DNA from: Nitrosopumilaceae archaeon
Lineage (GTDB): Archaea; Thermoproteota; Nitrososphaeria; Nitrososphaerales; Nitrosopumilaceae
Direction: 5' to 3'
Assembly: GCA_965214835.1 (NCBI GenBank)
Contig: CBDCCK010000002.1
Span: 3,136,001-3,200,000 of the forward strand
DNA: 64,000 nt
The notes under the pieces were generated by a model, which saw only the letters and a list, made by a program, of their open reading frames with translations, was not told where the DNA came from and searched no databases. Position 1 is the first letter of the stretch, and each line of letters opens with the position of its first letter. Of the stretch, positions 4,090-62,369 are shown one piece after another. The translations under genes and the position numbers were made by a program.

Positions 4090-5230
4090 TCTATAATCCA
4101 AAAAGTAGTTCACCCCTTCTCCGAGGGTCAAGTCGGTAAGGATCAGATGCACGGGCCTCATGCATGCCACTGGAAACAGGGGTGTGTGGGTCGCGCAAAA
4201 GGGCCTGGTAAATACGTCAGTCTTGCACGCCCCAACAACATGAAGCTAAAAAGTCAGGCGTACGGTGGATAGTACGCCAAAAGCAAAAGGGGGACATGAC
4301 AAACGCCCAGATAGCCGAATCCATGAACGTCTCGGTCCGCGGGATACAGAAACTGTGGGCCCGGCACAGGTCAGGCACCGTACAGGACATATCGCACCCC
4401 GCACGGATGGGAAGGCCCCAGAACGGCATGCCCGGGCGCAGGGAGCACTCGGCGGTCCTCTCGGTGCGGCCCTCCGAGCACCCGGGTGCGGCATCACTGC
4501 AGGATCTCACAAGGGAGAATACCGAGATTAATATCCCGCGACATACACTGCACGGCATGCTAAAGGACGAGGGGATGGCCAGAGACGAGCCCAACGGGCG
4601 CAGAAAACGCAGGTGGCTGCGCTGGGAGATGGAGTATTCCAACTCCATGTGGCACACCGACTGGAAGCAGATACACGGCGGAATGCACGACGGCAGGTGG
4701 TTTTTGTGCTACGAGGACGACGCATCCCGGTTCGTGACCGGATACGGCATATTTGACAACGCGACTGCAGAAAACGCCCTCAAGGTGCTCGATGAGGCCA
4801 TGCAGAACCACGGCAGACCTGCCTCCATAATGACGGACCACGGGAGCCAGTTTTACGCAAACGAACAGGGTGCAAGGAAGGGGCGCAGCAGGTTCGAGGA
4901 GAGCCTGGAGGCCCTAGGCATACGGCAGGTTCTTGCCGGGGTGCGCCACCCGCAGACAAACGGCAAGGTAGAGAGGCTGCACGGCGAGATACAGCGCAAG
5001 CTGCACGAGTTTGAGGATATCATGATGAGAACAAGCGATCCCATGGATCTGTTCATGAAATGGTACAACTACGACAGGCCCCACATGTCCCTTGACCGGG
5101 AGAACCGGGAGACGCCCGCGCAGGCATATGAGCGCAAGATGCCCCCTGCGGGCGAAACGGTCATAGATGGGCAGACCGGGGAGGAATATCATGTCAGATA
5201 GTGGGGGTGAACTACTTTTCGGATCCCACA
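4090..5230 (+). mobile_element. IS481-family insertion sequence
   Basis: Inverted repeats atccaaaaagtagttcacccc (4096-4116) / ggggtgaactacttttcggat (5204-5224); right end terminates ACA (5230). Confidence 0.85.
4296..5201 (+). CDS. IS481-family transposase
   Basis: WHTDWK, EDDASRF, MTDHGSQF, PQTNGKVERLH, YNYDRPHMSL; true start may be ATG 4240 via a 1-nt shift. Confidence 0.92.
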   Translation: MTNAQIAESMNVSVRGIQKLWARHRSGTVQDISHPARMGRPQNGMPGRREHSAVLSVRPSEHPGAASLQDLTRENTEINIPRHTLHGMLKDEGMARDEPNGRRKRRWLRWEMEYSNSMWHTDWKQIHGGMHDGRWFLCYEDDASRFVTGYGIFDNATAENALKVLDEAMQNHGRPASIMTDHGSQFYANEQGARKGRSRFEESLEALGIRQVLAGVRHPQTNGKVERLHGEIQRKLHEFEDIMMRTSDPMDLFMKWYNYDRPHMSLDRENRETPAQAYERKMPPAGETVIDGQTGEEYHVR

Positions 5231-11793: not shown

Positions 11794-11931
11794 TTAGCCG
11801 CGTTCCTCTGAGTCCTTTTTGCTGTCCCACATGTGCATGTTTCCACGAAGCATGAAAGAGCCAACTACAATCGTAACCAGCCCGGCAGCAATGAACAAAA
11901 AGAACCTGCCGATGCTTTTGATGCTTGCCAA
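11794..11931 (-). CDS. 45-aa single-TM protein
   Basis: TTG start: MASIKSIGRFFLFIAAGLVTIVVGSFMLRGNMHMWDSKKDSEERG. Confidence 0.6.
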   Translation of the reverse strand: MASIKSIGRFFLFIAAGLVTIVVGSFMLRGNMHMWDSKKDSEERG

Positions 11932-12299
11932 CCATCCTACTTGGATGGCGCAGTAATTAAACTGTCCAAGAATTCAAAAGGAGCCACGCCCGCAGCATGC
12001 TGTTGAACTGCAACAACAAGGAGGCGGGGTGCTATCACTTGGACGCAGTGCATGACGGGTGTTTTGGAAGATGTCTTGTAAGTGGCTGCAGGTGTAGGAG
12101 ATTTCAAAGATCAGCATCCATGTGAGCTCAAGTATTTTACAGGATTTCGTGATGTGGGGAATGGCTTCCGCTAGTTGCTCCATTTCCAAGGGGATGATCG
12201 GATATGCATCCATTCGGGGCTCTCCCCCGGTACCACCTTCATCCATTTGCACGGCTCCGCCCGCAGGATATGGATCTTGATTTTGTCAAAAAGGCACTT

Positions 12300-12875
12300 G
12301 GGCCACAGACGGAAGGTATTCTGGCAAGTCAGACGATGTAATCATGGAGAAAAAGTCCACAAAACCCCGAAGGGTAAAGGAACTATGAGATGATAAAATC
12401 AGGAGAAACTTGGTACCACATATGACGACGTGATGCTCCGGGTCAATGATCATGGTACGGGATATACAGATGCGGATAAAATGAATGAAAAAATACTCAG
12501 GACATTCATCAAACCAAAGCCAATACGGGCGCCGACCTAGAACAAGGGGATCAGGACACCGGCCGCACGCAAGATAATCCACAAGCTGGACGCCCTATAC
12601 GCACTGACGTCAGGACGATGGCAGCATCCAGAGCCCGCTTTCCCAGGAGTGCGGCCACATCCGTAATCAAAGGGCCTGATGCCCTGGCAGCTGCCTGGGA
12701 TGAATCTAAACACAGCAGGGGCGGCGATCCTTAGAATACAGGCAGGTTCTCAAAAAAAAGAGAGTGCGAAGAAGGCGAGGATAAAGACGGGATCTACTCT
12801 ATCTGTCTTGGAGGCAGGGTGAAAAAGACGGGGATGGGAACATTGGCAGGATCCGTAAACGTACCAATAATGTTA
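12300..12875 (+). pseudogene. Decayed virus-derived gene (possibly portal/head-protein-like) with WDESKH motif
   Basis: Frame at 12696 reads WDESKHSRGGDP*NTGRFSK; multiple stops/frameshifts; left boundary uncertain. Confidence 0.5.
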
Positions 12876-12954
12876 TAGCAACGAGCAGAAATAATTGAGG
12901 TTTTTTACGTGTAGTTATGACCTGCTTTGACTCAAAGACTTCTGCCCGTTGCTA
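12876..12954. mobile_element. MITE family A (79 bp, TA duplication)
   Basis: TIRs tagcaacgagcagaa / ttctgcccgttgcta, TA on both sides; near-identical copy at 26316..26394. Confidence 0.9.
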
Positions 12955-13783
12955 TAGCACGCAGATGGATGATGCGCTGGAACATATGGTGAAGGGTATA
13001 GCCGATCCCGAACGTCCAGAAAGAAATGCTAGACCATTCTTCAAGGCTCGTGATGCATACATTCAACTGATACATGATATTGTGGCTGAAACGATGAAGG
13101 ATGATGATGATCACATCAAAAAAATCAACGATGTGTTTGGCACATCATATACAAAGGAGACGCATGAAAAAGACCCGAAGATACTTGGTTTCAAACTTCT
13201 TGAGAAAATCCGTACAGGCGAGTTCACATCTGATATGGACGATATTTTCCCCGGGAGCCTTGAGATGGCAAGGATTTCAGGGCGTATTAACCAAGAGTAT
13301 GTAAAAGGCTGGGATGATGCCGATGTCCTATATCGTGGTACGAGGCTCAGCGAGGTCGACAACATGATTAATGATGGATTCGTTGGTAATCCCAAATATT
13401 ACAAGGATGTGTTCATTCGAACAACCACAGTTGAAACGATCAGTGATTTCTTTGCCCGCAAGAATTGGTATACTCAGAATACCGATGGCTCATTCAACGA
13501 GCCGTGCCGTATTGAGTATGACAAGGATTATCTTGAGAAGCATGTGGTGAAGCAGGGATTTGGCTTTTTCAAGACCGGTGATTCACATGAGATCGACGAG
13601 CCGCAGGGTGGAAACTTCCTGCATGAGATGGAGTTCCGATTGCCACCCTCCACACTCAAGGCCGACCCCAGCCGCATGGTACTCCATCTGGACAAGGATG
13701 TAGGCGAGGCACAGAGGGCCGTACATGCAAAGAAATACGGAATTTTTAAAAGACTTGTATACGATCTTACACGTGATGGATAA
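12917..13783 (+). CDS. Putative ADP-ribosyltransferase-fold toxin/effector domain
   Basis: VLYRG, IRTTT...FFA, HEMEFRLP = R-S/T-ExE order; alternative start ATG 12965; more AT-rich than core genes. Confidence 0.6.
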   Translation: MTCFDSKTSARCYSTQMDDALEHMVKGIADPERPERNARPFFKARDAYIQLIHDIVAETMKDDDDHIKKINDVFGTSYTKETHEKDPKILGFKLLEKIRTGEFTSDMDDIFPGSLEMARISGRINQEYVKGWDDADVLYRGTRLSEVDNMINDGFVGNPKYYKDVFIRTTTVETISDFFARKNWYTQNTDGSFNEPCRIEYDKDYLEKHVVKQGFGFFKTGDSHEIDEPQGGNFLHEMEFRLPPSTLKADPSRMVLHLDKDVGEAQRAVHAKKYGIFKRLVYDLTRDG

Positions 13784-14015
13784 ACAGCTGATACTTGCGG
13801 ATCTAAAGGCAGCCGGAGGTAACAAGACCGAGGTCTTTGACCACCTCAGGGGGTGGCTCGATATAGAGAACACACCTCAACTGGACGAGTTGTACAAAAT
13901 CATCGACGAGGCTCCGGGCCAGTGGAATATGAAGAATCCAAATACCGTCATGGCGCAGATGCGGCGCGTGTTTGGAGAGCCTCCGCCCGGCTTTGATACG
14001 AGTCCGTATGAGTAA
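13776..14015 (+). CDS. 79-aa protein coupled to the ART-like gene (candidate immunity)
   Basis: ATG overlaps upstream ORF end by 8 nt; MDKQLILADLKAAGG...FDTSPYE. Confidence 0.6.
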   Translation: MDKQLILADLKAAGGNKTEVFDHLRGWLDIENTPQLDELYKIIDEAPGQWNMKNPNTVMAQMRRVFGEPPPGFDTSPYE

Positions 14016-14121
14016 TCAGTTCAATTAAAGAAAAACACCGTTTACTATAACGGTACCGTCAATTGTTAAAGAATCCCGTGACAACACCTAGGGTTCTGTG
14101 CAATCTTCGACACCTGAAATG

Positions 14122-14251
14122 GGTGCTGTCGCCTAATTCCGCCTACCTGACTCAACCTGCACGTTTTTCTGAATTTCTGCCCTTTTGCACGCCTGATTCA
14201 TGTGGCATCCCAGCGGTTTTCAGGAATTCTGATGAATTAGGCGACAACCCC
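14122..14251. mobile_element. MITE family B (130 bp)
   Basis: tgtcgcctaattc / gaattaggcgacaacccc TIRs; homologous to 47374..47503. Confidence 0.85.
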
Positions 14252-14440
14252 GGTTCCAGGATGCCGAGGCCGTCCTGGCAGAGGCGTTTGCAGATTACAA
14301 CCAAGACAGGATCCACTCGGCGCTGGGATACATGACGCCGCACGAGTTTGCCCGGAAAATGCAGGAGGTGCCGCAAAAATGAGCGATGAGTGTGCATAAA
14401 ATGTCGCCAAAATCGTTCCTACTTACAGGGGCCCACTCCA
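14252..14440 (+). pseudogene. 3' end of an IS3-family transposase with right end
   Basis: FQDAEAVLAEAFADYNQDRIHSALGYMTPHEF; stop 14382; probable end ...ggcccactcca. Confidence 0.8.
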
Positions 14441-26240: not shown

Positions 26241-26315
26241 ATATGATAAAGGGCAGCTATGTGTGCGGTTCAAGTCCTGCATGGTTCGTGTGATTGTCGA
26301 CACAAGAGTGTTTTA

Positions 26316-26394
26316 TAGCAACGAGCAGAAATAATTGAGGTTTTTTACGTGTAGTTATGACCTACTTTGACTCAAAGACTTCTGCCCGTTGCTA
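26316..26394. mobile_element. MITE family A, copy 2
   Basis: One visible difference from 12876..12954; TA on both sides. Confidence 0.9.
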
Positions 26395-26858
26395 TAATTG
26401 GCTGGCGTCATGAACTGTTACATGATATCCTAGATCATCGGATTCCAGTTCTTGATACCTTGCATCTTGTTCACAGCCAATGTTGTTTCCACTCTTGCAG
26501 TCAGCGACGGTCACATGTAACAATTTTCCATATACGGCAACAACAATTCTCGCAATCGGCCTTTTGATGAATGTTCCTCATCTCCATACTTTGGATAAAT
26601 CACGCTTTCCAAATGATCCATAAAGTCCCTCCGTGTTTCTACTTTGGGGCCTAGAGCTCGTTGCTGACAGCACTTTTCACCACGGTTTAATTCTAGGGGT
26701 GTTTTATAATAGATGCCAGCACTCGCCCTCAAATGCAGCAGCTGCCCGAAGCAGGCAGTCCCCCCGAAGACGCACCAGTACGAAAATCCGCCAAATCATG
26801 GGTGATTTGCCACCAAGATTCAAAAAAACTGATAAACCCATGGTTAGGATTTCAGTTG

Positions 26859-55077: not shown

Positions 55078-58000
55078 CTAGCCGAGGCCCGCCGCATGCA
55101 GCAGCCGCACCTGCCGGGCCGACAGCTCGGCGCCGTACACGCGCAGCTCGTCAAGCACCGAGTCGATCCTGTCGGGGTCCCCCCAGCTGGTGGTCCTCAC
55201 CGTAAACGCATGGTCGTTTGTCGTGTCGCCTGCCAGCCCCTGGCCCCTGCGGAAGTGGTCATAGTCCCGGTGCTCGCCGTCGATATACGCGTTCAGTCCC
55301 TCCTTTGCGCCCGAGCCGTCGTACGTGAATGCGATATGGTGCCAGGCGCCGTCTGACATGTTCATGTGTTGCGGTGTATGCACGTTTATGAACGTGGAGT
55401 TGTCGTGTATCGAAAGCAGGACCCTGTTGGGCGCCCCTCCCCATACCCACACGTACGAGCCGGTATGGCCGAACGACTCTGCCTTGGACATTATCATGGT
55501 GCTGCCGTTGACGGGCGCATCCTGCCTGAGCCAGAACGCAATGCTGAACGGGTCGGTCCGCCCAAAGTCAAAGTCGGCCTCCCCCGCGAGGGTGACGTTC
55601 GTAGAGCCGTCAAGCTGCAGCCCCCTGCCTATCCTGCCCTCCACGTATGAGATACCCCCTGCAGCCGTGCCGTTGTTGTCCCCTGTGATATCTGCCAAGC
55701 TGCCCTCAAAGGACAGGCCTGCCACGAGCTCCTCATAGGGGGCCGTTACGGTCACGGGATCGGCGATCGTGACCCGTATGCCGCCCATCGGACTTCCGTC
55801 CCCGTCCACTAGGCCTACCCTGAACGTGCCTCCCGCGTCTGCGTCGTCGGCGATCCTCAGCAGTATCGTATACTGGGAGCCGGGCGCGTTGATCGTGTGA
55901 TACCTCACGTCGTATGAGGAGCCTGCGTGGTTGTCAAGTTCCATCGTGCGGCGCCGCTGCCCGGGAAAGTCAGTGCATACGGTCGTGCCGCATGCAGAGT
56001 CATCCGCGAGTCCCCCAAAGTCGTCCACCGTAAGCGAGTCGCTGTATATGGCAAGGGCGTCGTGCTGGTGCCTTGTGCCATCAAGGGTCACGGTATACTC
56101 GAATGTCTGTCCCGGAAATATCCTGTCGGGGCCCGTGATCCTCCAGGTGGTGTCCCCGTCCGTTACCGTCCTCGTGGACGGCGGCATCACCGTTACCGGT
56201 ATGCCTCCCACCGGGTTGTAGCTGGCGTCCAGCATGCCGACTGTGGCCTGCGCCCCCGCCGGCGCGTCGGCTGCCGGCTGCAACAGTATGGTGTGGCTGG
56301 ATCTGGACTTTTTCATCTTGTTGTGCATGGCAGTATACGGCGAGTCCTCGTCACTGGCTATCTTGTACGTGTTGTGCTTTTGTTCGGGAAACCCCGCGCA
56401 CAATATAGTCTGGCAGTCTGCATCGGGATCATGCCATCCGAGGTACCGCGTATCCGGCGCAGCGCTGTACACGGCAAGGGCCTCCTCCCTGGGCCTCGCC
56501 CCGTCCTCGAGGGTTACGGTATACTCGAAGGTCTGCCCCGCGAATATCCTGTCCGGGCCCGTGACGCTCCACGTGGACCGGCCCGTGCTCACGGTCTGCG
56601 AGACGTCCAGGATGGCGTCAGATGCGTCCACGTGTATGATAAACCAGTCCCGCAGCGAGTTTGCAGAGCCGTCTGTCGCCATACATGACACCTCGGTGAA
56701 TCCGGGCGCAAACGTCGATCCTGACTCGTGCGTGCATGATACTGCCACGGCCCCATCTACGAGGTCTGTAGCTGTAGGCGCATCGTAGCTGACTTCCATT
56801 CCCCGGCCCGCCGGATCATCCACGGATATATTGCGCAGGCCGGAGATGGCAGGCGGCGTCGTATCCTGTATCGTAACGGTCTGGGCGGCAGTCGCCTCGT
56901 TGCCAGAGGAATCGGCGGCAGTCCACGTTACCGTGGTGTTGCCGAGCGGGAACGATTCCGGTGCGTCGTTTGTGATTGTGGGGCTGGGATCGGCAATGTC
57001 AGACACGGTGGGAGTCCCATAGTCGCCGGCATTCAGGATTGTCATGATGCCGGCAGCCTCGGCCGTATGATCGGCGGGTGCTGTGATGCTCGGCGGCGTG
57101 GTGTCCTGTATCGTCACGGTCTGTGTGGCCGTGGCGGCATTATCGGAGGAATCCGTGGCAGTCCATGTCACTATGGTGTCGCCGAGCGGGAACGATTCCG
57201 GTGCGTCGTTTGTGATTGCCGGGTCGGGATCGGCAGTGTCGGTGGCCGTGGCCTGACCTATTGATATTATACTCAGCACGCCGGAAGCCTCGGTTGTGAC
57301 ATCTGGCGGTGCGGTTATGCTCGGCAGTGTCGTGTCCTGTATCGTAACAGTCTGGGTGTCAGTGGCCGCGTTGCCCGAATCATCCGTGGCAGTCCACGTG
57401 ACTGTCGTGCTACCTAGGGGAAACGATTCCGGTGCGTCGTTTGTGATTGCCGGGTCGGGATCCAAGTTGTCGGTGGCCGTAGCCTGCCCTATGGATGTTA
57501 CAGTCAGCACGCCGGAAGCCTCGGTTGTGACATCTAGCGGTGCGGTTATGCTCGGCAGTGTCGTGTCCTGTATCGTAACAGTCTGGGTGACAGTCGCCAT
57601 GTTGCCAAAGTCATCTGTGGCAGTCCATGTCACTATGGTGTCGCCGAGCGGGAATGACTCTGGTGCGTCGTGCGTGATGACAGGATCGGGATCCAGATTG
57701 TCGGTGGCAGTGGCCTGCCCTATTGATATTGTGGTCAGCACGCCGGTGGCCTCTGCTGTATGGTCAGCAGGCGCCGTGATGCTCGGCGGCGTGGTATCTT
57801 GAACCGTAACAGTCTGGGTGGCAGTGGCCGCATTGCCCGAATCATCTGTGGCAGTCCATGTGATTACCGTGTCGCCTAGCGAGAACGACGCGGGTGCGTC
57901 GTTTGTTATTGTGGGGTCGGGATCGGCAATGTCGATGGCAGTGGCCTGCCCTATGGATGTCACGGTCAGCACGCCGGTGGCCTCTGCGGTACGGTCGGCA

Positions 58001-60564
58001 GGCGCCGTGATCCAGGGCGGCGTGGTGTCCTGTATCGTAACAGTCTGGGTGGCAGTGGCCGTGTTGCCAAAGTCATCCGTGGCAGTCCACGTGACTGTGG
58101 TGTCGCCTATGGGAAACGACTCTGGTGCGTCGTTTGTTATCGCCGGGTCGGGATCCAGATTGTCGATGGCAGTGGCCTGCCCTATGGATACGGCAGTCAG
58201 CACGCCGGTGGCCTCGGCCGTGACGTCGGCGGGCGCGGTGATTACGGGGTCAGTCGTGTCCGAGGGTCCGCCTCCGTCACTTTCCATGACTGCAACATTG
58301 TCTATCTCGACGTGCTCGCTTGAGGAGCTGGACTTTGCCACGAACCTGATCTTTGCGGTGTCCTCCGTGATGTCCAGGGACAGGGACTCGCTGCTCCACG
58401 AGCCGCTGTCCTCGCGGTTGTTGTGGGTATAGCTTGCAAGATTGATCCAGTTGGTTCCATCTGCAGAGTACTCTACAAACAGGCCCTCCCCGGCATCGAC
58501 GCTGGAGTCAACGAACCTGTCAAAGGAGACGGTCAGCGCGTCCTGCGTGTCAAACGTCGAGGATGTCGTGGCGATGCAGTCAGTGTCGCAGTTGCTCGAT
58601 ATGAGCGCCTGGTTTGTCCGGCTGTTCTCGCCGGGCACGTCCTCGTCGGGGTCCCCGATCTCCCAGTCAGAGTCGCCGGACAGGTCCCACTTTGAGAGGT
58701 CCGACTCAAAGTCGTCTGCGAACTCCGTGACCGGGACGACGAGGTCGTATGGGAACTTGTCTATCCCGTGCGTGCTTGCCAGGGTGTACGGCTCGCCGAT
58801 GGCAGTCGTCAGCGTCCCGTCGGAGCTCACGGTGATGGTGTAGAATCCGGTCTCCGGCGCGTCAAACACGACGAACTCGTTGTTCTGGACGTCAGAGTCG
58901 CTCGTCCTTGTCACGCCGTTGGGAAACGTCACCGCCAGGTCATAGTTGTGGTACTGGCTTGGAAGCTGGATGTGGGGGCTGCCGATTGGAAGGGTGGGCG
59001 ACAGTACCGTGCCTCTCGGATGCACCAGCCAGGACAGCAGCACCTTTACCTGCTCGCCTGCGCCTGCGTAGATCCTGTACGAGTTTGCATCAAAGTCGCC
59101 TGAGCTTTGGTCGTACAGGACGTTCGGGTACTGGTTGTCGTTGGCATAGTCAAGTGATCTCGTTGCGTTGAGTATGCCAAAGCCGTACCGGTTCATGGTA
59201 TCGTATATCCCGGCCCTCCGGTTATCATAGTCTGCTGCCGTCGCCGGCGTGTCTGCCTGCCAGTCTGCGCCGAGCAGCAGTGCGGACTTTATCTCCAGAT
59301 GCCGGTAGTCCGGCTGCTTTTCTAGGATCAGGGCACTGGCGCCTGCCACAAAGGCGGTGGCAAAGCTCGTGCCGCTGTCTATTTCATAGTCACGGTTTAT
59401 CATATTTCTGCGATCTGCGGCCCGTGCAAGGTCAAGATCTACGCCGATTGCGGTTATCTCGGGCTTTATTCTGGGTGAGTCGCCGCCAGGGGTGTTGAAC
59501 TGGGCAGGTCCGGGAACGCTGTCACTCCACAGGATTCTGTCCTTGTCGACTGCACCTGCGCTGATGTAGTTAAAGCCGCATGCCAGCTTCTGTATGTGTG
59601 GCGGGGGAAACGCCGCCGTGTTATCTGGTTTGTTTCCGATGGCCATGGAAAAGCTCAAGCCCTCGTGTACCGCCCTGTCGGTGACAATGGTGAGGGCAGA
59701 ATAGTCGTTGCATCCATAACTTTCAGTATTTGCCAGTATTGAAAGTGCCACAGTGATATCGCTGGTCATCATCTCATCAAGTGCCCTGGCAAAGGTATTT
59801 TTTGCCACGGAACTCTCACCCACGTGAGTCACGCCAGCTAAGCGAGCGTCGTGTATCATGGAGTCTGGTGCCATCCCCGCCATTGCGGGGTTGGTGCTGT
59901 TGGATGCTATGACTGCGGAAGTCGAAGTGGCACGGTTGGTACCGGCCAGCAGTGAAGCATTAATGCATTGGAGTTGGGTGCATAGGAGCGAGGCAGCATT
60001 CTTGTTTTGCAGATCAGGGTGTGTAAAATCCGTGCCCGTACCAATCAGTCCAACGGTGATCTCCCTGCCAGTATACGGATACACGTCGGAGCCTACGTTG
60101 GTGGCGCCAACTACGGCCTTGGCCTGCGCCAGTGTCAGTGCCGGCGGTAGTCTTGACGGTGATGCCGACGATGTCATTTCCCCATGTCCGTCTCCAAGCT
60201 TGTAGACGTGATCATAGCCTGCCAGCTCCGCTATCCTGTTCACCGGGACGTCGGCGATGAGAAAGTCCAGGCTCTTTGACTTGAATATGTCCCGCGAGCC
60301 CATCTCCCTTAGCGTTTGCTCCAATCCGTCTTCGTATCCGTCATCTGTGACTATTATTACGGAATGTGCAGCCAGTGTTGCGTTGTCCGAACTGTCTGCC
60401 CTTCCATGCGATGTCATGTTCTGCATGTGCTGGATCTTTTCATAAAAGCCGTCATCGAACTTGTACAGGTTGTCTTGTACCTCACCTGACTCTGAGAATG
60501 ACAAAGCCGGAACGGAGAGCAAGACTGGCAGCAGGATGGCAAGACATGCGACTGCTTGGTTCAT
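55078..60564 (-). CDS. Giant secreted protein: S8 subtilase-like domain, 7 HYR-like repeats, two unassigned repeats, C-terminal LamG-like domain
   Basis: Signal peptide; THPDL, IKPEITAIG, SGTSFAT; DTTPPxITAP repeats; WHHIAFTY..LDELRVY. Confidence 0.88.
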   Translation of the reverse strand: MNQAVACLAILLPVLLSVPALSFSESGEVQDNLYKFDDGFYEKIQHMQNMTSHGRADSSDNATLAAHSVIIVTDDGYEDGLEQTLREMGSRDIFKSKSLDFLIADVPVNRIAELAGYDHVYKLGDGHGEMTSSASPSRLPPALTLAQAKAVVGATNVGSDVYPYTGREITVGLIGTGTDFTHPDLQNKNAASLLCTQLQCINASLLAGTNRATSTSAVIASNSTNPAMAGMAPDSMIHDARLAGVTHVGESSVAKNTFARALDEMMTSDITVALSILANTESYGCNDYSALTIVTDRAVHEGLSFSMAIGNKPDNTAAFPPPHIQKLACGFNYISAGAVDKDRILWSDSVPGPAQFNTPGGDSPRIKPEITAIGVDLDLARAADRRNMINRDYEIDSGTSFATAFVAGASALILEKQPDYRHLEIKSALLLGADWQADTPATAADYDNRRAGIYDTMNRYGFGILNATRSLDYANDNQYPNVLYDQSSGDFDANSYRIYAGAGEQVKVLLSWLVHPRGTVLSPTLPIGSPHIQLPSQYHNYDLAVTFPNGVTRTSDSDVQNNEFVVFDAPETGFYTITVSSDGTLTTAIGEPYTLASTHGIDKFPYDLVVPVTEFADDFESDLSKWDLSGDSDWEIGDPDEDVPGENSRTNQALISSNCDTDCIATTSSTFDTQDALTVSFDRFVDSSVDAGEGLFVEYSADGTNWINLASYTHNNREDSGSWSSESLSLDITEDTAKIRFVAKSSSSSEHVEIDNVAVMESDGGGPSDTTDPVITAPADVTAEATGVLTAVSIGQATAIDNLDPDPAITNDAPESFPIGDTTVTWTATDDFGNTATATQTVTIQDTTPPWITAPADRTAEATGVLTVTSIGQATAIDIADPDPTITNDAPASFSLGDTVITWTATDDSGNAATATQTVTVQDTTPPSITAPADHTAEATGVLTTISIGQATATDNLDPDPVITHDAPESFPLGDTIVTWTATDDFGNMATVTQTVTIQDTTLPSITAPLDVTTEASGVLTVTSIGQATATDNLDPDPAITNDAPESFPLGSTTVTWTATDDSGNAATDTQTVTIQDTTLPSITAPPDVTTEASGVLSIISIGQATATDTADPDPAITNDAPESFPLGDTIVTWTATDSSDNAATATQTVTIQDTTPPSITAPADHTAEAAGIMTILNAGDYGTPTVSDIADPSPTITNDAPESFPLGNTTVTWTAADSSGNEATAAQTVTIQDTTPPAISGLRNISVDDPAGRGMEVSYDAPTATDLVDGAVAVSCTHESGSTFAPGFTEVSCMATDGSANSLRDWFIIHVDASDAILDVSQTVSTGRSTWSVTGPDRIFAGQTFEYTVTLEDGARPREEALAVYSAAPDTRYLGWHDPDADCQTILCAGFPEQKHNTYKIASDEDSPYTAMHNKMKKSRSSHTILLQPAADAPAGAQATVGMLDASYNPVGGIPVTVMPPSTRTVTDGDTTWRITGPDRIFPGQTFEYTVTLDGTRHQHDALAIYSDSLTVDDFGGLADDSACGTTVCTDFPGQRRRTMELDNHAGSSYDVRYHTINAPGSQYTILLRIADDADAGGTFRVGLVDGDGSPMGGIRVTIADPVTVTAPYEELVAGLSFEGSLADITGDNNGTAAGGISYVEGRIGRGLQLDGSTNVTLAGEADFDFGRTDPFSIAFWLRQDAPVNGSTMIMSKAESFGHTGSYVWVWGGAPNRVLLSIHDNSTFINVHTPQHMNMSDGAWHHIAFTYDGSGAKEGLNAYIDGEHRDYDHFRRGQGLAGDTTNDHAFTVRTTSWGDPDRIDSVLDELRVYGAELSARQVRLLHAAGLG

Positions 60565-60956: not shown

Positions 60957-62369
60957 TCACCTGCCGCTCTGGGACGGGTCGGACAGCCTTCCGATGAACA
61001 GTATGTTGCCCGTCTCCATGTCCTGTATGACAAAGACAAACGGGTGGTCTGCTGTAAACGTCGGAGGCCCTGACGAACTAGATGCTATTATAGTTGTGGC
61101 CCCGGCCTCCGTCCCCTTTTCGTTTACGTTTATGAACGCCTTGTGGACTGCGTCTGACACGTGCAGCCGCTCGTCCCCGGCGATGCCAGAAAGGTCGGCC
61201 CCCTCGCCAAAGATCGAGGTCACGCCCATCGCGGACAGGTCCTCTCTTAGATTGTACGAGATGTCAAGGCTGAATCTTGGAAAATAGACCTGCAGTATTT
61301 TATCTACAAGATCTCCCTTCCACTCCTCGAGGCTCTCGGCGCTCAGCATCCCCTCCAGCTCGCCTATCCCGCCCTTTTCGTTTGGCAGCAGTACTAGCAT
61401 GGAGATGCGGTCGCCCACGTACGGCATCTCAAGGATCTGGTGCGTGCCCACGTTTGCGTGCCTGTAGCCAACATCCTTTGTGTACATCATCGGAACCGTT
61501 ACCTTTTTGTCGGGGGTCGCCCAGAACGGGTAGTCCTCGATGGTACTGCCTCCGCCAAACGTGTTCACCCAGTCGCCCTTGAAGTATACTGTATTCGTTA
61601 TGACCAGCGGCGTTGCGGCGCCGACGGAGCCGGGCGCCATGACCTCTTTTATCCTGCCGCCGGTGTTATCTGACACCCACCCGTTAATCGTCTTGACCGC
61701 GTCACCGGACCCAAAGTCCACCATCTCCACGCCGCTGTCGTAGTATATCCTTGCGGTCTGCACGTACTCCTCTAGCGGCTCGAGCCATTCTGCAAGCCAC
61801 AGTGCGTTTGCAACCGACAGCCGGTACTCTGTGTCGGGCCTGTTCAGATCCACCATTGCCGAGCCAAACTGCAGGCGTTTTTCCTCCGGAAACCCGAACG
61901 CATCTGTGAGCTCGTCCCTCGTGTCGCCCCCCGCCCCCTCGTGTGCGAGTGCAAAGGCGCTGGAGATGCTCCACGGTGAGAATACGATGTTTTTGCCCTC
62001 CTGCCTGGCTACGTGTGAGTAAAAGTCGACTGCAAAGTCGTTGTTTGCTGACACGATCCCAGAATAGTCCGAAATCTCGACTGGCACCAGGCCGCCGGCC
62101 TGCAGCAGCAGGTGCGTGGACTCGGCGGTGCCGGCATCTGGTATAGTTACGGTCCACCCCATCCTTTCTGCAGTGTTATCCCTCACGCATACTGCGCCGC
62201 CGGTGTCGCGCACGACCAGCACGAGCCCCTCCCTGCACAGGACCCCGTCGGGAGAGACGCCGGCTGCAAGCTGCTTTAGCGGGGGCGGTGGCACCTCTGC
62301 GTGCGCGGTGGCAGCGGCAGCTGCTGCCAGAACGAGGAAAAGTCCTGTTACGGCAAGGCGCCTGATCAT
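60957..62369 (-). CDS. Secreted serpin
   Basis: NIVFSPWSI, INGWVSDNTGGRI, NTVYFKGDW, VNEKGTEAGA hinge, FTADHPF, ILFIGR. Confidence 0.95.
   Translation of the reverse strand: MIRRLAVTGLFLVLAAAAAATAHAEVPPPPLKQLAAGVSPDGVLCREGLVLVVRDTGGAVCVRDNTAERMGWTVTIPDAGTAESTHLLLQAGGLVPVEISDYSGIVSANNDFAVDFYSHVARQEGKNIVFSPWSISSAFALAHEGAGGDTRDELTDAFGFPEEKRLQFGSAMVDLNRPDTEYRLSVANALWLAEWLEPLEEYVQTARIYYDSGVEMVDFGSGDAVKTINGWVSDNTGGRIKEVMAPGSVGAATPLVITNTVYFKGDWVNTFGGGSTIEDYPFWATPDKKVTVPMMYTKDVGYRHANVGTHQILEMPYVGDRISMLVLLPNEKGGIGELEGMLSAESLEEWKGDLVDKILQVYFPRFSLDISYNLREDLSAMGVTSIFGEGADLSGIAGDERLHVSDAVHKAFINVNEKGTEAGATTIIASSSSGPPTFTADHPFVFVIQDMETGNILFIGRLSDPSQSGR

Follow-up and report, generated by a model that had tools for sequence, protein, structure and literature searches.

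ADP-ribosyltransferase (ART) toxins of Rhs and type VI secretion systems (T6SS) are encoded directly upstream of a small immunity gene (viz. TreTu-TriTu and TreX-TriX), and Tre1-Tri1 is an ART toxin-immunity pair of the same kind. In the present work, we describe a pair of overlapping genes, designated A and B and predicted to encode an ART and its small antidote, from the 3.22 Mb genome (G000) of an archaeon of the family Nitrosopumilaceae. The window analyzed is the whole stretch of 64,000 nucleotides (nt) at G000:C2:3136001-3200000, and positions below are those of this window unless a contig is named. The small ART-fold domain of A is like that of the Rhs/T6SS toxins (TreTu, Z 5.7; TreX, Z 5.5), B lies directly downstream, as their immunity genes do, and is predicted to sit on the catalytic face of A, and orphan C-terminal toxin fragments with partner genes, as known from those systems, are found at stubs of A at four further loci and in Nitrosopumilus sp. 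UBA526. The small downstream gene and the modules of an orphan tip with a partner are traits of polymorphic toxins, binding being indicated by co-folding only. Unlike the Rhs/T6SS systems, the pair has no Rhs, PAAR or T6SS carrier and no sequence similarity to them, its host is an archaeon and its partner protein of 79 amino acids (aa) belongs to a new family.

Two published accounts describe ART domains carried by MuF polymorphic toxins of temperate phages and by phage polyvalent proteins (PMC5576092, PMC5512222). Some homologues of A resemble such proteins in having two cargo copies, but no MuF domain was detected in the homologues, phage records give no match and A is a free-standing gene in a cellular neighborhood. 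The Alt, ModA and ModB enzymes of phage T4 have a similar R ... S/T ... ExE pattern, and weak matches of A in BFVD include Alt-like proteins (E 2.8e-3); however, A shows no sequence match to the T4 enzymes and no head-gene context, and T4 Alt is not known to have an immunity partner. The DarT-DarG and ParT-ParS systems share with our pair the two-gene toxin-antidote logic with an ART-fold toxin (DarT, Z 6.1-6.4; ParT, Z 3.5), and the array in UBA526 lies in a defence-island-like neighborhood. They differ from it in that the toxin gene comes first here, the R/ExE motif is not the DarT set and no PADLOC model is matched; the macrodomain antitoxin of DarTG has no counterpart in B, a 79 aa protein that matches no Pfam, NCBIfam or PADLOC family. 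As regards type II toxin-antitoxin systems, in which a co-transcribed antidote protein binds and neutralises the toxin, the overlap or abutment of the two genes is kept in five of six copies and the co-fold score of the two products is 0.71 as against 0.00 in controls; A and B may be a pair of this type.

Our preferred reading, for which we hold the chances to be evenly balanced, is that A and B constitute an ART toxin held in check by a small, cleft-capping protein antidote, the pair having been kept after loss of its carrier and the antidote outliving the toxin at other loci. A would be an NAD+-using ART of the R-S-E type, with R140, the T169-171 strand and E237-x-E239 lining its cleft. B, a small helical protein translationally coupled to A through an 8-nt overlap, would cover this cleft and keep A inactive in the producing cell, which would make the two a toxin-antidote (immunity) module. 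A WDESKHSRGG..GRF junction once connected the gene to a part lying ahead of it, which a stop, a frameshift and an in-frame miniature inverted-repeat transposable element (MITE) have cut off. The retention of B beside stubs or a truncated piece of A at four further loci would be expected if the toxin can be lost while the antidote is retained. The observations below show the two ORFs, the fold of A, the conservation of its residues, the linkage of the genes and the lesions; we infer from them that A is enzymatically active and toxic, that B inhibits it and that the pair is expressed at present.

The ART-like gene A and its overlapping partner

Gene A is the open reading frame (ORF) at 12917..13783 (+ strand), 288 aa as listed, in which residues ~17-130 are helical and residues ~130-288 comprise the ART domain (13304..13780, + strand). 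The original prediction had drawn attention to three motifs of this ORF and to a 79 aa ORF overlapping its end, and both are borne out. The motifs are present in the order VLYRG (residues 137-141), FIRTTT (166-171), FFA (178-180) and HEMEFRLP (236-243). Conservation, modelling and fold matches single out R140 (in VLYRGT), the T169-T171 strand (in FIRTTT) and E237-x-E239-x-R241 (in HEMEFRLP). Gene B (13776..14015, + strand), which encodes the predicted partner or antidote of A, starts at an ATG at 13776 that overlaps the TAA of A (13781-13783) by 8 nt, and ends with a stop codon at 14013-14015. Its frame also has an earlier ATG at 13725 (96 aa in the ORF listing), but similarity among the copies of B begins at the 13776 Met and not at the 13725 ATG. 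The frames of A (from 12965) and B have no internal stops in 272 and 79 codons, respectively, whereas the three forward frames of the 312 codons at 11936-12872 contain 13, 11 and 10. Given the local composition, 272 open codons are expected by chance with P = 2.2e-7, and homologues exist for both ORFs.

Neither A nor B gave a match above noise in Pfam, PHROGs, PADLOC or NCBIfam, and both families are uncatalogued in these libraries. Searches of the PDB by sequence and by profile returned nothing credible (best E 0.06, syntaxin, and 0.1, Lmo0066), the ESM Atlas has no match of at least 0.9 for A, a word-index search with A found only A itself, and an alignment search only P0008 and A. When 1.84 billion cluster representatives were searched exhaustively with phmmer (E<=1e-3), 14 proteins were identified, including A itself, one paralogue and a protein of G002, a genome of the same genus, which leaves 11 distant homologues. 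Four of these are 222-333 aa long and seven are 372-904 aa long with the domain at the C-terminus; P0004, P0008 and P0012 carry it twice. A KHPR..G.F-type motif precedes the domain in four of the 11 (viz. P0004, P0007, P0008, and P0009), where [W/F]-x-E-x-[K/E]-H-[P/K]-R-x-x-D-G-x-F is found ~100-170 residues ahead of LYRGT, and most of the remaining homologues have W-[IVR]-T-x-x-G-x-x-[IV]-F in its place. The ART module belongs to a sparse family and occurs in three forms, viz. free-standing genes of ~220-350 aa followed by a small ORF, C-terminal cargo of 370-900 aa proteins, and a module behind a Laminin_G_3 domain (G002); the cargo-type modules sit behind junction motifs of the KHPR..G.F or W.T..G..F type.

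In an alignment of the 14 sequences, K203, E237, E239 and R241 are invariant and R140, T142, E146, Q230 and G231 are at least 90% conserved. The ExE pair (E237, E239) is present in 14/14, while two of three added copies from genome G036 are without it and may be inactive. A copy in G003, another genome of the genus, reads FYRGTS / LSTS / EAETRIP at the three motifs. A has FIRTTT at the STS strand, the first position of which is S, C, P or R across the family, only the later T/S being kept.

The model of full-length A (predicted local distance difference test score, pLDDT, 76.5) is helical to residue ~130 and alpha/beta thereafter, and gives the same fold picture in structure searches as the model of the domain (pLDDT 89.9; predicted template modelling score 0.86). 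Only 156 of 48,161 representative chains reached Z>=2 and almost all of the top 50 belong to the ART superfamily. About three quarters of these are ARTs by entry title; most of the others are likewise proteins of the ART fold, and one, a cytidine deaminase (Z 3.4), is clearly unrelated. The highest scores were obtained for KptA (Z 6.9; root-mean-square deviation 3.1, 91 aligned residues), DarT1 (6.4), DarT (6.2) and Tpt1 (6.2), followed by TreTu (5.7), TreX (5.5), LT (5.3), PltA (5.1), Scabin (5.0) and pertussis toxin (5.0); diphtheria-type toxins, PARPs, ParT (Z 3.5) and Arr are also among the top 50, and an SPN-type NADase is listed as well. Foldseek lists the same families, all at E>=0.032. 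It is well supported by these models that residues ~130-288 of A adopt an ART fold, and the ART-like character claimed by the original prediction, with its R ... [S/T] ... ExE pattern, stands. An Arg on strand 1 together with ExE is the signature of the R-S-E, arginine-specific protein transferases, and by this motif evidence A may be assigned to the R-S-E clade.

Partner gene B in this genome and in other Nitrosopumilaceae

The only detectable relatives of B are four paralogues in this genome, the G002 protein and two proteins apparently from other assemblies of close relatives. Among 151 genomes of the family, convincing matches were found only in G000 (five places) and G002 (one), besides three weak ones (E 5.7e-4 to 0.01). 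Four of the five loci found by tblastn in this genome directly follow A-like C-terminal sequence; at the fifth (C2:3124048), a repeat and a ~3-kb insertion lie between the A stub and B. One of the four further copies of B, intact otherwise, has lost its start to an insertion. The start of B overlaps or abuts an A-like stop in five of six copies (five here and that of G002, where an ART ORF is followed by B with a 4-nt overlap), and the core of B is open in all six, while the whole ART domain is kept only at the window copy and in G002. What remains of A elsewhere is the last ~125 residues including HEMEFRM (C2:2944357), ~48 residues (C2:968415), or ~25-30 residues (C2:942395 and C2:3127261). 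The ~3-kb insertion at C2:3124048 contains three ORFs of 217, 117 and 99 aa (L017:4400-5679, + strand), of which the 99 aa product is a putative RelE/ParE-type protein by its look.

The proportion of nonsynonymous differences (pN) between copies is 0.30-0.51 for B, compared with a proportion of synonymous differences (pS) of 0.63-0.84, and 0.36-0.44 compared with 0.65-0.72 for A. The copies are old, with pS near saturation and pN well below it, and A and B have therefore evolved as coding sequences for most of their divergence. The linkage of the small ORF to A-like sequence elsewhere, which the original prediction had singled out as a check, comes out in its favor.

Co-folding of A (residues 120-288) with B, carried out in three runs with our own alignments and with three controls, gave scores of 0.80, 0.55 and 0.71 (median 0.71) compared with 0.00 for the best of the controls. 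At least 39% of contacts were common to the runs and the pLDDT of the partner was at least 74. Of 80 solved complexes, 58 attain the mark applied, as do two of 110 mismatched pairs, a calibration that is only rough for our own alignments. The modelled interface involves residues 142-146, 159-164, 168, 178-189 and 221-224 of A and residues 22-35 of B, including its invariant W27. On A it adjoins R140, the STS-equivalent strand (168) and the loop before ExE (221-224), i.e. the catalytic face, and the model supports binding of B to this face. The coupled small partner that the original prediction had proposed hence gains both a recurring linkage to A and a predicted contact with it.

When 401 genomes of the family were searched with a profile, the ART domain was found in 11 (this one included), belonging to six of 27 genera, at 20 places in a patchy distribution. 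Thirteen of these have, at -29 to +5 nt from the ART stop, the start of a same-strand ORF of 35-146 aa; in this genome, the rule is satisfied by 24% of long open frames (426 of 1767). As the places include paralogues and the baseline is from one genome, this count is supportive but not a formal test.

The layout is seen most clearly on a contig of Nitrosopumilus sp. UBA526, found with P0016 as query (one locus); a contig search with a 4-row alignment found none. The first gene of its array, at 177-1223, encodes an ART (E 4e-15 to A) and has an 8-nt overlap with a 51 aa ORF, a second, C-terminally truncated ART gene is followed after 80 nt by a 55 aa ORF, and an orphan ART C-terminal fragment has an 8-nt overlap with another 51 aa ORF. 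The array adjoins a restriction-modification island with two methyltransferases (D12 and N6/N4) and an AlwI-type endonuclease, and a Fic/DOC protein lies further on. The contig (L031:1-12493) has the array between ribosomal protein genes, like a small defence island, and two runs of N interrupt it. In G036, three divergent ART-family genes lie on one contig (C14; L012:11811-14005 and L013:8648-10930), two of them without ExE. The small ORFs that follow the ART genes there are related between two loci (LP.YVIET..G.KKITF, DDP.FYEKLE), and one ART gene has a C-Y-W-R-T..G..I-C-F junction motif.

The former carrier, the junction motif and mobile elements

The DNA upstream of A was described by the original prediction as full of stops but with a readable motif, and this is what is found: with 10-13 stops per frame, it still reads AAWDESKHSRGGDP*NTGRF. 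The junction motif DALAAAWDESKHSRGGDP*NTGRF (12678..12749, + strand) is out of frame with A, contains a TAG at 12732-12734 and is part of a frame (12678-12758) that reads DALAAAWDESKHSRGGDP*NTGRFSKK. Its pattern occurs three times in the whole genome (the reversed pattern does not occur), viz. in the window, directly after another copy of B (C2:3123784), and at C2:2004118. The motif segment of the window matches the tail of a further gene, C, of G002 (E 1e-4, 16/35 identical). In G002, a single open frame runs from GGDPANPGRFSEK into the ART domain, and the distance from the motif Phe to the Met aligned with Met17 of A is 45 aa. In the window, the distance from GRF to Met17, minus the MITE, is 134 nt or ~45 codons, out of frame. 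This equality of spacing with the intact relative indicates that the carrier was once fused to A. Three lesions now lie between motif and gene, viz. the MITE, a single net frameshift, and the TAG at 12732 within the motif itself. The earlier claim that a decayed upstream part was once joined to A is upheld in this way, with the MITE as a refinement.

A possible remnant of the former carrier frame lies at 12397..12663 (+ strand), with an in-frame TAG at 12538 and a TAA at 12664 as its end. The assignment is weak; this piece has no homologue in 40 relatives, and when compared with gene C of G002 it falls short of significance (E 0.26). Nor do the other upstream read-through pieces have homologues in the 40 relatives, except for one paralogous motif. 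The ORF upstream of the ART domain in G002 encodes a Laminin_G_3 domain (E 5.8e-18) one frameshift from GGDPANPGRF. It is the only carrier domain identified, and by it at least one carrier in the genus is of a surface type and not a virus head protein. In the window, a 1828 aa protein (55078-60564, - strand) adjoins a serpin (60957-62369, - strand; E 1.9e-106). It combines a subtilase domain and seven HYR domains with a Laminin_G_3 domain at its C-terminus, and the latter is of the kind found upstream of the G002 ART gene.

One other WDESKHSR ORF is present in this genome, at C2:2004118. The polymorphic character put forward by the original prediction is hinted at by this second WDESKHSR ORF with its different C-terminus, while no trafficking domain was identified in the window. 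This ORF (G000:C2:2004035-2004163, - strand) has an unrelated, hydrophobic C-terminus of 109 aa with two to three likely membrane spans, and its upstream frames are broken too.

The junction motif is also met with downstream of B. Behind B, both G002 and the locus C2:968551 have gene C, which encodes ~95 aa and ends in a AAAFDESKVNRGG-type sequence, i.e. the motif that precedes A; the copy at C2:968551 is degenerate (SDTDESKVNC). Gene C is in the same frame as B, and the spacer of 41 nt between them is identical at 39 of 41 positions at the two loci (L006:1534-1578 and G000:C2:968749-968793; CCAAAAGACACAAAAGGCA..ACATACACAATAATTCTGATG), although synonymous sites in the adjoining coding DNA are saturated; this spacer may be a promoter or other regulatory element. 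At C2:3123997, the motif follows B past a single in-frame stop, and at C2:942493, as in the window, B has a tail similar to that of gene C. A small ORF after an ART gene in genome G088 contains IDESKTARK, and the small ORFs after the ART genes of two of its contigs (L041, L051; G088:C137, G088:C260) have MRWMWKPDRKKVEAAVDKAVSELQIDESKTARK in common, which places a DESK-type junction motif inside the partner ORF itself. The ancestral unit may have been [carrier C - junction - ART][B] in tandem repetition, an arrangement that would be similar to the orphan arrays of bacterial polymorphic toxins.

The MITE of 83 bp (12874..12956; TATAGCAACGAGCAGAA ... TTCTGCCCGTTGCTATA), recognised by its terminal inverted repeats, genome copies and flank comparison, has eight further full-length copies in the genome (96-99% identity) and ~29 shorter matches to its ends. 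A second full-length copy in the window (26313-26396) is 98.8% identical to it. Since the ATG of A at 12917 falls within the MITE, the first 13-14 codons of A as listed are transposon sequence, and native sequence resumes at about codon 14, just ahead of Met17 (12965). The MITE, which carries a TGA stop and also AAATAATT ~27 nt ahead of the ATG, now supplies the first ATG of A. It adds 81 nt and keeps the frame, if the terminal TA is a target duplication; when it is removed, the frame of A extends upstream as ...GEKDGDGNIGRIRKRTNNV|STQMDD... to a stop at 12782.

Two other repeats flank the pair. A dispersed repeat in the decayed zone (12125..12265) was recognised by tblastx of 11936-12875 against the genome, in which seven other loci match it in all frames, and by a rise of contig depth in four of four public runs. 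A high-copy dispersed repeat (14084..14335) lies immediately 3' of B; its sequence also abuts the copy of B at C2:3124048. Its depth reaches hundreds to thousands in the deeper runs X1, X5 and X7 and tens to ~100 in X8, and many loose contig ends lie at 14125-14255. Over 11900-14400, the contigs of the four runs (X1, X5, X7, and X8) end at repeats and break at the MITE, where depth is in the thousands; outside the repeats, X1 and X5 are identical to the window, and no allele without the MITE or with an intact carrier was found in the four runs. An ORF of 301 aa at 4296-5201 (+ strand) has an rve integrase core domain (E 3.3e-12) and probably encodes an insertion sequence transposase.

Alternative explanations and significance

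Several observations weigh against the view of A and B as an active toxin and antidote. The fold scores are middling (Z<=6.9; best Foldseek E to the PDB 0.032, none <=1e-3), the best structural matches are KptA and DarT and not R-S-E enzymes, and the classical first Ser of STS is Arg168 in A and variable (S/C/P/R) in the family. B is detectable in this genus only, and the co-fold score is a model confidence and not a measurement. The 13 of 20 places with a small downstream ORF are paralogous and non-independent and their baseline is from a single genome. Homology between the small ORFs of UBA526 and B is undetected (hhalign probability 0.7%), so the former provide no independent evidence about B itself; antidote genes usually have no detectable relatedness to one another. 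A third conserved gene, or its tail, follows B in frame and ends in the junction motif, which a simple two-gene model does not explain. Finally, with so many MITEs and decayed copies in this genome, A may itself be a relic that was orphaned recently.

This last point leads to the alternative that both ORFs are functionless leftovers, A being open through its recent separation from the carrier and the ATG in the MITE being accidental, which we regard as unlikely. The carrier is destroyed, a MITE sits in the 5' end of A, the four other copies are clearly decayed and MITEs are many in this genome, which speaks for it. However, 272 and 79 codons without a stop, next to 312 with 10-13 per frame, the intactness of all family-conserved residues in A, and the excess of pS over pN in both genes are at variance with it. 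In other genera, moreover, ART genes of comparable length stand alone, each followed by a small ORF, so that a module need not become inactive when it loses its carrier.

A second alternative holds that A is the relic of a virion-delivered host-takeover enzyme, i.e. the C-terminal cargo of a head-packaged protein, with B (and gene C) as the next virus gene or a packaging helper, brought in by old integrations. The original prediction had likewise assigned the cassette to a provirus and its carrier to MuF or portal proteins, and neither assignment is sustained. No virus genes are found near the cassette, the flanks of which are housekeeping genes (viz. Elp3-like radical SAM, class I LysRS, PNPOx-like, methyltransferase, ferritin, and 3-methyladenine glycosylase), and the other four copies of B also sit among cellular genes; the provirus claim is hence unsupported. 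The window contains no tRNA genes or Rfam families and, with no tRNA gene, no tRNA integration site. MuF has no Pfam or PHROG match in the ORFs of the window or in the 10 homologues scanned. Of the virus-type character of A there are hints only: BFVD gave three weak matches at E<=1e-3, among them lipothrixvirus proteins (E 1.5e-4) and a 1390 aa phage head-morphogenesis protein (E 6.4e-4), with Alt-like RNA polymerase ARTs at 2.8e-3, and in its language-model features the N-terminus of P0013 (300 aa) comes close to clusters of prohead proteases (0.91-0.93), which is a lead only. Among the matches listed by a literature search on the KHPR motif none was relevant, and the link to phage head proteins put forward in the original prediction is a tentative one.

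The matches to the head-morphogenesis protein and to Alt-like ARTs and the P0013 lead speak for a virion origin, as do the distant homologues of 370-900 aa on metagenome contigs of 48-126 kb, with the domain C-terminal, sometimes twice per protein, and behind junction motifs. ART fusions to head-packaged proteins are a theme described in two papers (PMC9503650, PMC5576092), and this also favors it. We nevertheless judge a virion origin improbable. There is no virus hallmark near the five copies or the G036 and UBA526 loci, the contexts being cellular or defence islands, and scans of 10 homologues brought up neither a MuF nor a portal domain. P0012 and P0009 had no tblastn match among 50,697 phage records, and IMG/VR (P0009, P0012 and the 4-row alignment) and JGI metagenomes gave none either. 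Neutral provirus decay would not keep the core of B open in six of six copies while A is lost, and B lies on the catalytic face in the predicted co-fold.

That A uses its ART fold for other chemistry, as a NAD+ glycohydrolase or a DarT/KptA-type nucleic-acid ADP-ribosyltransferase/phosphotransferase and not as a protein-arginine transferase, is highly doubtful in our view. In its favor, KptA/Tpt1 and DarT are the top structural matches and an SPN-type NADase is also listed, the invariant basic residues K203 and R241 lie beside ExE, and the STS serine is not conserved. Against it, the Z scores of KptA/DarT and of the R-S-E toxins differ by ~1 or less and are effectively tied, the strand-1 Arg with an invariant ExE is the protein-transferase signature, and the histidine and arginine set of KptA is not present in that form.

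Returning to A and B as a toxin and its antidote, we consider it a rather remote prospect that in ammonia-oxidising archaea the motif [W/F]-D/E-E-S-K-H/V-x-R-G-G..G-R-F is an exchange point at which ART-antidote cassettes move among large (virion or other) cargo proteins, Laminin-G surface proteins and free-standing pairs, as an archaeal counterpart of the orphan arrays of contact-dependent inhibition (CDI) and Rhs systems. Orphan copies of B would then be stored immunity against ARTs from viruses or kin, and the motif, where it recurs at the end of the gene after B, would provide the homology arm for a further exchange.

The conflict systems of ammonia-oxidising archaea are poorly charted. 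Two families are defined here, one of ARTs and one of their partners, neither of which is recognised by the curated libraries, and their pairing recurs across genera, including arrays and orphans. Should the pair be inactive, it would illustrate clearly how decay can be differential in a genome rich in MITEs. If it is active, it would join the small number of toxin-antidote pairs of this phylum whose chemistry is defined, and would provide a handle on how such modules move between carriers.

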